DNA of 64,000 nucleotides from a bacterium (GTDB taxonomy: Bacteria > UBA8248). Of this stretch, positions 50,922 to 51,599 are shown one piece after another. The stretch is from positions 768,001 through 832,000 of the forward strand of contig CBDBEV010000001.1 of assembly GCA_965204535.1 (NCBI GenBank), written 5' to 3'. The position numbers and the translations under genes are program-made. How positions within the stretch are numbered: position 1 is the stretch's first letter; each line of letters begins with the position of its first letter. Under the pieces are notes generated by a model, which was given only the letters and a program-made list of their open reading frames with translations, searched no databases and was not told the origin of the DNA.

Positions 50922-51599
50922 ATGTCCAGAATTGAAATGATTCAGCCCGAGGAGGCGGACGCCGACGTGGCCCGTATCTATGAGGCCACAACCGCCATGC
51001 TGGGCCGCGTACCGCATTCCATGCGGGTGCTGGCCAAGACCCCCCACGTCGCCAAGGCGATGCTGCCGTTCATAGCGACGCTCCAGCGCGAGGGCGGGGG
51101 CAGCATCCTCAAGACCAAGGTCAAGGAGATGGTGGTCATCAAGACGAGCCATCTCAACGGGTGCGCCTACTGATACGCGCACAACACGTCGCTTGGTCAA
51201 GCGGCCGGCATCACCCCCGAACAGGTGGATGTCATCGGCACGGACGGCTACATGGAATCGGATCTGTTCACCCCGCGCGAGAAGGCGGCCATCCTCTGGG
51301 CGGAGCACGTAACGCTCAACACGGCGCGTTCGCAAGACGACGTGTTCGATGAAGTGCGGAAGCATTTCTCTGAAGCCGAAATCGTCGAGCTCACGATGGT
51401 GAGCGGGCTGTTCAACCTCTTCAACCGCTTCATGGATTCGCTCGGCATCCCGCTCGAAGAGCAGCGAGAGGTCGACAAGATCAAGAAATCCCTCTATCTG
51501 GACGGCGGGAAGGTCAAGACCTACTACAAGACGATGGTCGATCACTGGCCGGAAGAGTATCCCGAGCCCGACGCACAGGACCCGAACAAGAACGCATGA
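50922..51599 (+). CDS. AhpD/carboxymuconolactone decarboxylase-family selenoprotein (in-frame TGA at 51171-51173 = Sec84)
   Basis: Track ORFs 50922-51173 and 51225-51599 share a frame; read-through gives NGCAY-U-YAH, matching the AhpD CxxC..H motif; hairpin follows the TGA. Confidence 0.85.
51188..51205 (+). promoter_or_regulatory. Putative bacterial SECIS element
   Basis: GTCGCTT-GGTC-AAGCGGC stem-loop; apical loop starting GGU lies 21 nt after the UGA. Confidence 0.7.

Follow-up and report, generated by a model that had tools for sequence, protein, structure and literature searches.

A UGA-containing AhpD/CMD-like gene in a UBA8248 genome as a predicted CxxU selenoprotein with a compact SECIS-like hairpin

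The stretch 50922-51599 on the forward strand of the window (the whole 64,000-nucleotide piece of contig CBDBEV010000001.1 that was analysed) forms a single gene of 225 codons when its internal TGA, codon 84, is translated as selenocysteine (Sec), and the comparative evidence indicates that this UGA is almost certainly decoded as Sec with the aid of the hairpin located behind it. The gene belongs to the catalogued class of AhpD/CMD-like CxxU selenoproteins, and the result is chiefly an annotation correction. On sequence grounds, the protein is a member of an unnamed AhpD/CMD subfamily, characterized by a CxxU-x-x-H-N motif and a tail of ~45 residues, for which there is no curated model. Its fold and active-site residues make it fairly probable that it functions as a selenol/thiol reductase of peroxides or oxidised thiols.

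The reading frame begins with the ATG at 50922, and the in-frame TGA at 51171-51173 occupies the second position of the AhpD-type CxxC motif (...AAC GGG TGC GCC TAC TGA TAC GCG CAC...), beyond which the frame remains open until the TGA at 51597-51599, giving 225 aa. Residues 78-93 of the Sec reading are LNGCAY-U-YAHNTSLGQ. Translation with table 11 splits the gene into fragments of 83 and 124 aa, just as the first-pass annotation, prepared from the sequence alone, had expected of standard annotation. The same annotation had placed the TGA exactly at the second Cys of an AhpD motif, NGCxYC..H, within a frame running to 51599 and followed by one terminator for the whole unit; the position of the TGA, the frame and the terminator (a forward-strand stem at 51619-51644 plus a T run) are all seen in the sequence, and the motif needs one refinement, since its His lies at +3 and that of canonical AhpD at +4. 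The features of the gene are as follows.

50908-50913 (+): Shine-Dalgarno-like AGGAGA, 8 nt 5' of the start, seen in the sequence; putative function
50922-51599 (+): AhpD/CMD-like gene (PF02627), 225 aa with predicted Sec84, complete; from translation, orthologues and the PF02627 match
51126-51128 (+): Glu69, aligned with PA0269 Glu36 and M. tuberculosis AhpD Glu118; invariant in 105/105 aligned homologues
51162-51164 (+): Cys81, first residue of CxxU; invariant among aligned homologues
51171-51173 (+): in-frame TGA, predicted selenocysteine 84; from orthologues, Cys homologues and DNA-level sites
51180-51185 (+): His87-Asn88 (His at +3, Asn at +4), both invariant in 105/105 aligned proteins
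51188-51205 (+): predicted bacterial SECIS with a 7-bp stem and GGUC loop (51195-51198); from comparison and folding
51459-51596 (+): C-terminal extension, approximately residues 180-225, predicted helices; from the model and the predicted dimer interface of a Cys homologue
51619-51654 (+): intrinsic-terminator-like hairpin plus T run (stem 51619-51644), fold z -3.9

The source genome (G000, 95.7% complete) encodes selA (573 bits), selB (389 bits) and selD (332 bits), the last of which itself carries an in-frame TGA, together with a tRNA-Sec gene (selC, 75.9 bits, anticodon UCA), so all four of the Sec genes whose absence the first-pass annotation had regarded as fatal to its Sec84 proposal are present. 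Moreover, selB scored above its cut-off in 21 of the 22 other genomes of the genus, the one miss being a genome that is 79% complete. A match to the gene was found in 35 of the 41 genomes searched, including all 22 others of the genus, and the TGA is not a peculiarity of one strain: codon 84 is TGA in 23/23 genus orthologues (84-100% identity), whose codons 1-223 are free of any other stop. Purifying selection acts on either side of it, with nonsynonymous/synonymous codon differences of 0.35 upstream and 0.48 downstream among these 23 orthologues.

In database homologues, the Sec site pairs mostly with Cys: among the 120 database homologues listed of the 206 passing, the residue is Cys in 90, Trp in 17 and Leu in 1, and the remaining 12 comprise 9 tandem forms, represented by a full copy without both cysteines, and 3 downstream fragments. 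At the DNA level, the best 80 of 211 GTDB loci, 20 of which are the genus orthologues counted again, contain 97 sites, distributed as 90 TGA, 7 TGC and 0 TGG. Trp at the Sec site in these 17 entries could be taken to mean that the codon is read as Trp, and the lack of unusual stability in the wider folds after the TGA would suit a genuine stop arising from a pseudogene, a split gene or a sequencing error. Such an outcome is nevertheless extremely improbable: because TGG occurs at none of the 97 DNA sites, the Trp entries are likely TGA codons that gene callers translated with a Trp code, TGA is the commonest stop of the source genome (653/1428 long ORFs), the position of the stop falls within a predicted helix, and the half of the protein downstream of it is conserved. 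A DNA contig, perhaps the source itself, matches without a difference over 1101 nt and has the same TGA. Four RNA-library runs, belonging to two studies, gave contigs that span codon 84 (three of them bridge the codon) and show nothing but TGA at 51171-51173, so that TGC or TGT is seen in none of them. These RNA contigs are neither proof of transcription nor informative on expression level, strand or ends, and their stopping near 51581-51649 is a weak hint at most. The reading of codon 84 as Sec is thus supported by the conserved TGA, the Cys homologues, the Sec machinery and the hairpin.

The hairpin, described in the first-pass annotation as GTCGCTT-GGTC-AAGCGGC starting 14 nt past the TGA, was located at 51188-51205; it comprises a 7-bp stem and a 4-nt loop beginning with GG and situated 21 nt past the UGA, and has an energy of -7.5 kcal/mol folded alone, a value for a stretch chosen after the fact. 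The bacterial SECIS consensus calls for a loop of 3-9 nt, a stem of 4-16 bp, a G in the first two loop positions, a distance of 16-37 nt from the UGA and an MFE of at most -7.5 (PMC13188914), and the hairpin agrees with every one of these values, its energy lying exactly at the limit. A stem of four or more pairs follows 88 of the 90 TGA sites and none of the 7 TGC sites, with the loop GGTC at 87/90 TGA sites and GGAC at 3/90. In 17 hand-chosen orthologues and paralogues, one of which supplied the structure that was evaluated, five of the seven stem pairs change on both sides (e.g., the closing pair from U-A to C-G); both-side changes occur in 14 cells, a number reached by 0/500 shuffles, and 87% of cells pair vs 29-51% in slid controls. 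The hairpin is carried by codons 89-94, and the gene has no other run of at least three synonymously invariant codons among the 23 orthologues, kin that are not independent; the hairpin codons CTT, GGT and CAA are minority choices, representing 11%, 11% and 25% of the codons that the genome uses for Leu, Gly and Gln. Support for the hairpin comes from comparison and not from folding energy, since windows of 42-100 nt beginning at the TGA are no more stable than their shuffled versions (z +0.3 to +1.5). Across the genome, mean folding energies are alike after 56 Sec-candidate sites (-12.7) and 356 Cys codons (-12.1), the G-loop position is occupied at 71% of these Sec-candidate sites vs 22% of the Cys codons and 14% of 300 stop TGAs, and GGYC hairpins counted behind every TGA of the genome gave no peak at +22. 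The element, earlier described as SECIS-like, fits the bacterial SECIS model and shows compensatory changes.

The assignment of the protein to the AhpD/CMD family, also proposed at first pass, is upheld by a PF02627 match above the gathering score (37.9 vs 23 bits), by the AhpD fold and by the CxxU motif. None of the NCBIfam families reached its cut-off for this protein: TIGR01926 (peroxidase-related enzyme) scored 75.9 vs 81.8 bits, so that the protein is not a member, and a paralogue of the same genome (L083) does pass with 112 bits; NF053654 (YciW-related (seleno)protein; 73.4 vs 310, E 1.8e-20) and NF041238 (AhpD_rel_CFYUT; 52.1 vs 175, E 5.9e-14) fall far below. A structural model with Cys in place of Sec has a pLDDT of 92.4, and its best matches are the D. 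radiodurans AhpD-like DR1765 (6k40, Z 20.7), 2oyo (Z 20.0) and S. pneumoniae AhpD (6e8l, Z 18.7), followed by Bmp8 (Z 18.0-18.1), P. aeruginosa PA0269 (Z 16-17, 16.8) and M. tuberculosis AhpD (Z 11.4), while gamma-carboxymuconolactone decarboxylase structures score lower (Z at most 11.8). Matches to TALE repeats in the PDB searches were rejected as spurious short-repeat matches. The decarboxylase proper lacks a CxxC relay (PMC3141380), and the presence of CxxU sets the window protein apart from it.

In the case of PA0269, the relay consists of Glu36-Cys48-Tyr50-Cys51-His55, and the AhpD relay His at +4 is invariant and essential (PMC3141380). An ungapped alignment to this relay gives E69-C81-Y83-U84-N88, in which four of five positions match; the fifth departs from AhpD proper, with Asn88 at +4 and His87 at +3 in 105/105 aligned proteins, and HMMER places His87 either way, ungapped against PA0269 and with a one-residue gap against 2oyo, 2pfx and 6k40. 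Further invariant polar residues are R56, K68, K74, N165, N168 and R169. The best 150 cluster representatives divide into 28 with His+3/Asn+4, 28 with His+3 only, 18 with His+4 and 76 with no such motif, many of these 76 being fragments or Cys-less copies. A quick tree (79 rows, no bootstrap, midpoint root) groups the window protein with four G000 paralogues and the tailed homologues in a branch with SH-aLRT 100, nested in a 43-row His+3 branch (SH-aLRT 98); the His+3/Asn+4 label takes 12 changes on this tree and is clustered, not shown as one clade. None of the high-scoring structure rows aligns beyond residue 189, leaving the ~45-residue tail unmatched by solved structures. The suggestion that the C-terminal extension marks a distinct subfamily thus finds agreement in the scores below all NCBIfam cut-offs, the unmatched tail and the separate branch of the quick tree.

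The tail may contribute to dimerization. A natural Cys homologue (P0006, ~61% identical) was predicted as a homodimer with a score of 0.95 against 0.00 for the best control, a mark reached by 20/30 solved pairs and 1/23 single chains; its runs agree in at least 98% of contacts with a pLDDT of at least 93, and tail residues 192-220 lie in the predicted interface, although resemblance to AhpD-like oligomers of known structure may account for this pass. From these models, the window protein likely works as a homodimer. In 8 of 19 metagenome loci, a copy with the TGA is joined in frame to a redox-dead one without Cys81, and such fusions are consistent with the dimer being the functional unit. Related arrangements were observed in the source genome, where a Sec AhpD-like gene precedes a Cys-less paralogue at G000:C2:1074896-1076175(+) and a Sec AhpD-like domain is fused to a Cys-less repeat at G000:C2:1221246-1222040(+), a layout that recurs as ~450-aa fusions in loci L178-L189.

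In its own genus, the gene is the only one between rph-rdgB and the terminator: an RNase PH gene (rph), identified by profile scan, lies upstream, and the gene ending at 50812 between the two is presumably rdgB-like. The window also contains a DehI-like haloacid dehalogenase gene (PF10778) at 55840-56745(+) and an alpha/beta hydrolase at 42650-43519(+) that we take to be haloalkane-dehalogenase-like, both within 8 kb of the AhpD-like gene, as well as what is presumably a HigB/HigA-like toxin-antitoxin pair at 52323-52942(+). Among the best 80 of 211 loci, DehI-like genes occur at most 4 kb away in 13, 16 Rhodospirillales-labelled loci have a GrdB/PrdB-like gene next to the gene, together with a further paralogue that carries TGA, and the other recurring neighbours are an MFS transporter (21), TauE (8) and a protein without a Pfam domain (11). 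No AhpC or peroxiredoxin was recognised among the recurring neighbours listed for these 80 loci, of which 9 cluster representatives were scanned. The protein seen in 11/80 loci, which is ~245 aa long and starts with MDRGIWAxWYDL, also flanks three G000 paralogues; its copies include G000:C2:941138-941875(-), 695449-696189(-) and 1768267-1768992(+), and L127:3078-3818(-), the last of which has no Pfam match.

In M. tuberculosis AhpD, the second Cys is the nucleophile. In the window gene, SelB with Sec-tRNA very likely binds the GGUC loop 21 nt past the UGA, so that Sec is inserted; the Sec84 selenolate would then act as the nucleophile on an O-O or S-S bond, and Cys81 would resolve the Sec84 adduct to give a selenenyl-sulfide. 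Glu69 and His87, the latter in a putative role replacing the +4 His of AhpD, could relay protons, and a dihydrolipoyl or thioredoxin-type donor would re-reduce the enzyme. The source genome encodes lipoamide dehydrogenase (lpd) and biotin/lipoyl-domain proteins, and a precedent for such a donor exists (PMC8945050). This selenol/thiol reductase reading has against it the replacement of the relay His at +4 by Asn88 and the lack of a recognised AhpC or peroxiredoxin beside the gene in the loci scanned.

The ~14 divergent paralogues, the invariant tail and the many invariant polar residues are easier to reconcile with substrate-specific enzymes than with a single antioxidant of general purpose, and it is possible, if unlikely, that the same Sec protein is a substrate-specific small-molecule reductase, in its boldest form a reductive dehalogenase resembling Bmp8, whose selenolate would take a halogen off an aromatic substrate, as in deiodinases, with the paralogues covering different substrates. 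The active site differs from the AhpD relay, three deiodinase-like Sec candidates occur in the source genome, and the DehI-like gene and the presumed haloalkane-dehalogenase-like hydrolase lie in the window; the recurrence of DehI-like genes in the 13 loci is, however, confined to one lineage, which also shares the rph synteny. Bmp8 is a debrominase on the AhpD fold (PMC5577590, PMC7918430; PDB titles) that debrominates by oxidising its own cysteines to a disulfide (PMC5577590). Its structures (6ohi/6ohj) align over 170 residues with an rmsd of 2.4 A, lower than that of any other match of ~180-190 residues, and it was detected by phmmer with E 1.7e-9, but several peroxidase-related structures outrank it in each of the searches, the neighbouring genes include no recognised bmp-like cluster, and the PDB title 'C82A', read as making the first Cys of Bmp8 catalytic, disagrees with Sec at the second position here. 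It is quite doubtful that the CxxU-x-x-H-N subfamily as a whole consists of Se-dependent reductive dehalogenases on the AhpD fold, rather than antioxidants, multiplied in marine bacteria meeting organohalogens; if true, it would be a bacterial counterpart of deiodinase built on a second scaffold. A role as a relay subunit re-reducing a partner selenoenzyme, either PrdB/GrdB-like or OsmC-like, has a small probability: C. glutamicum AhpD regenerates OsmC (PMC8945050), the source genome has five OsmC-like and three PrdB-like Sec candidates, and the 16 Rhodospirillales-labelled loci pair the gene with a GrdB/PrdB-like gene and a second TGA paralogue, yet the gene is solitary in its own genus.

The gene forms part of a large candidate selenoproteome. 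G000 has 14 tblastn matches to the AhpD-like protein, 10 of them with TGA, and ~56 candidate selenoprotein genes, made up of 46 from family scans (including this gene), 9 from tblastn and 1 from an HMM; the count is hand-filtered, 13 of 59 picked and family-scanned ORFs having been dropped, and the coding score by itself makes a noisy screen (93 TAG and 92 TAA candidates beside 137 TGA). The candidates include 14 AhpD/CMD-like, 8 UGSC, 5 DsbA, 5 Trx/Prx, 5 OsmC, 3 deiodinase-like and 3 PrdB-like proteins, with 2 rhodanese, 2 TIGR01244-like, 2 Grx, GrdA, GrdB, SelD, SelW, DsrE, DUF3179 and CoA-transferase in addition; nine molybdopterin-domain matches had no in-frame stop inside the PF00384 region. 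In one AhpD-like paralogue, two TGAs lie in frame at a distance of three codons (UxxU; G000:C2:2008856 and 2008847(-)). The total is near the top of published counts (46-63), and close relatives are labelled Nitrospinota/Nitrospinaceae. Table 2 of the BSepDB paper lists UBA8248 (Nitrospinota-labelled) MAGs with 48-54 selenoprotein genes (PMC13326102), by methods that differ from our hand-filtered count, and a 'record-size selenoproteome' was rejected as a new finding since that table already documents the richness. A separate observation concerns CoA-transferase subunit A (PF01144; L055, G000:C2:146781-147605(+)), which has a TGA at codon 102: it carries 1 TGA in 23 loci among the 41 genomes, and a stem with a GGC loop is kept in 11/11 TGA loci examined and absent in 5/5 Cys homologues. 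It is missing from Table 1 of the 2026 review (PMC13188914) and was not found by literature search; this candidate is more novel than the AhpD-like gene.

In 2005, the Sargasso Sea metagenome led to the prediction of AhpD-like and CMD-like CxxU selenoproteins (PMC1088965); they were counted in hundreds in GOS (PMC2398784), and Table 1 of the 2026 review gives both as predicted families, 'AhpD-like 1' (TIGR01926/COG2128) and 'AhpD-like 2' (CMD-like, PF02627) (PMC13188914). The literature examined held no experimental test of any AhpD-like selenoprotein, the review describing them as predicted only. With its compact SECIS and natural Cys counterparts at ~61% identity, the present subfamily is a convenient test case for Sec in the AhpD fold, and its importance would grow if the changes in the active site brought a new reaction with them, dehalogenation for example. 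The database entries to correct are P0048, P0053 and P0093, which correspond to the downstream 124-aa fragment, and the 17 with W at the Sec site, including P0011, P0013, P0014 and P0018.

Compared with solved AhpD proteins (M. tuberculosis, PA0269 in 2ijc/2o4d/7xw1, DR1765 in 6k40 and S. pneumoniae in 6e8l), the window protein shares the all-helical fold and the relay positions of Glu, Cys, Tyr and the second Cys, whereas it has a predicted Sec at the second Cys, Asn at the relay His, a C-terminal extension and no recognised adjacent ahpC. NF053654 and NF041238 are related AhpD-fold Sec/Cys families, from which it differs in length and motif. Bmp8 shares the fold and two-cysteine redox chemistry at 18% identity, a likeness known from fold and sequence scores only, and differs in that the window protein places Sec at the second position and has no recognised bmp cluster. 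The BSepDB MAG FO_M_Nitrospinota_01 carries homologues that are 62-64% identical (L121, L138). With the Sargasso Sea and GOS AhpD-like 1/2 families, the protein has in common CxxU, PF02627, a bacterial SECIS with a loop G, Cys homologues and marine metagenomic sources; in contrast to the GOS families, it scores below the TIGR01926 cut-off and has His+3/Asn+4 and the ~45-residue tail. The subfamily may already stand among the published GOS AhpD-like 1/2 sequences, and it is set apart here by family score, motif and tail.
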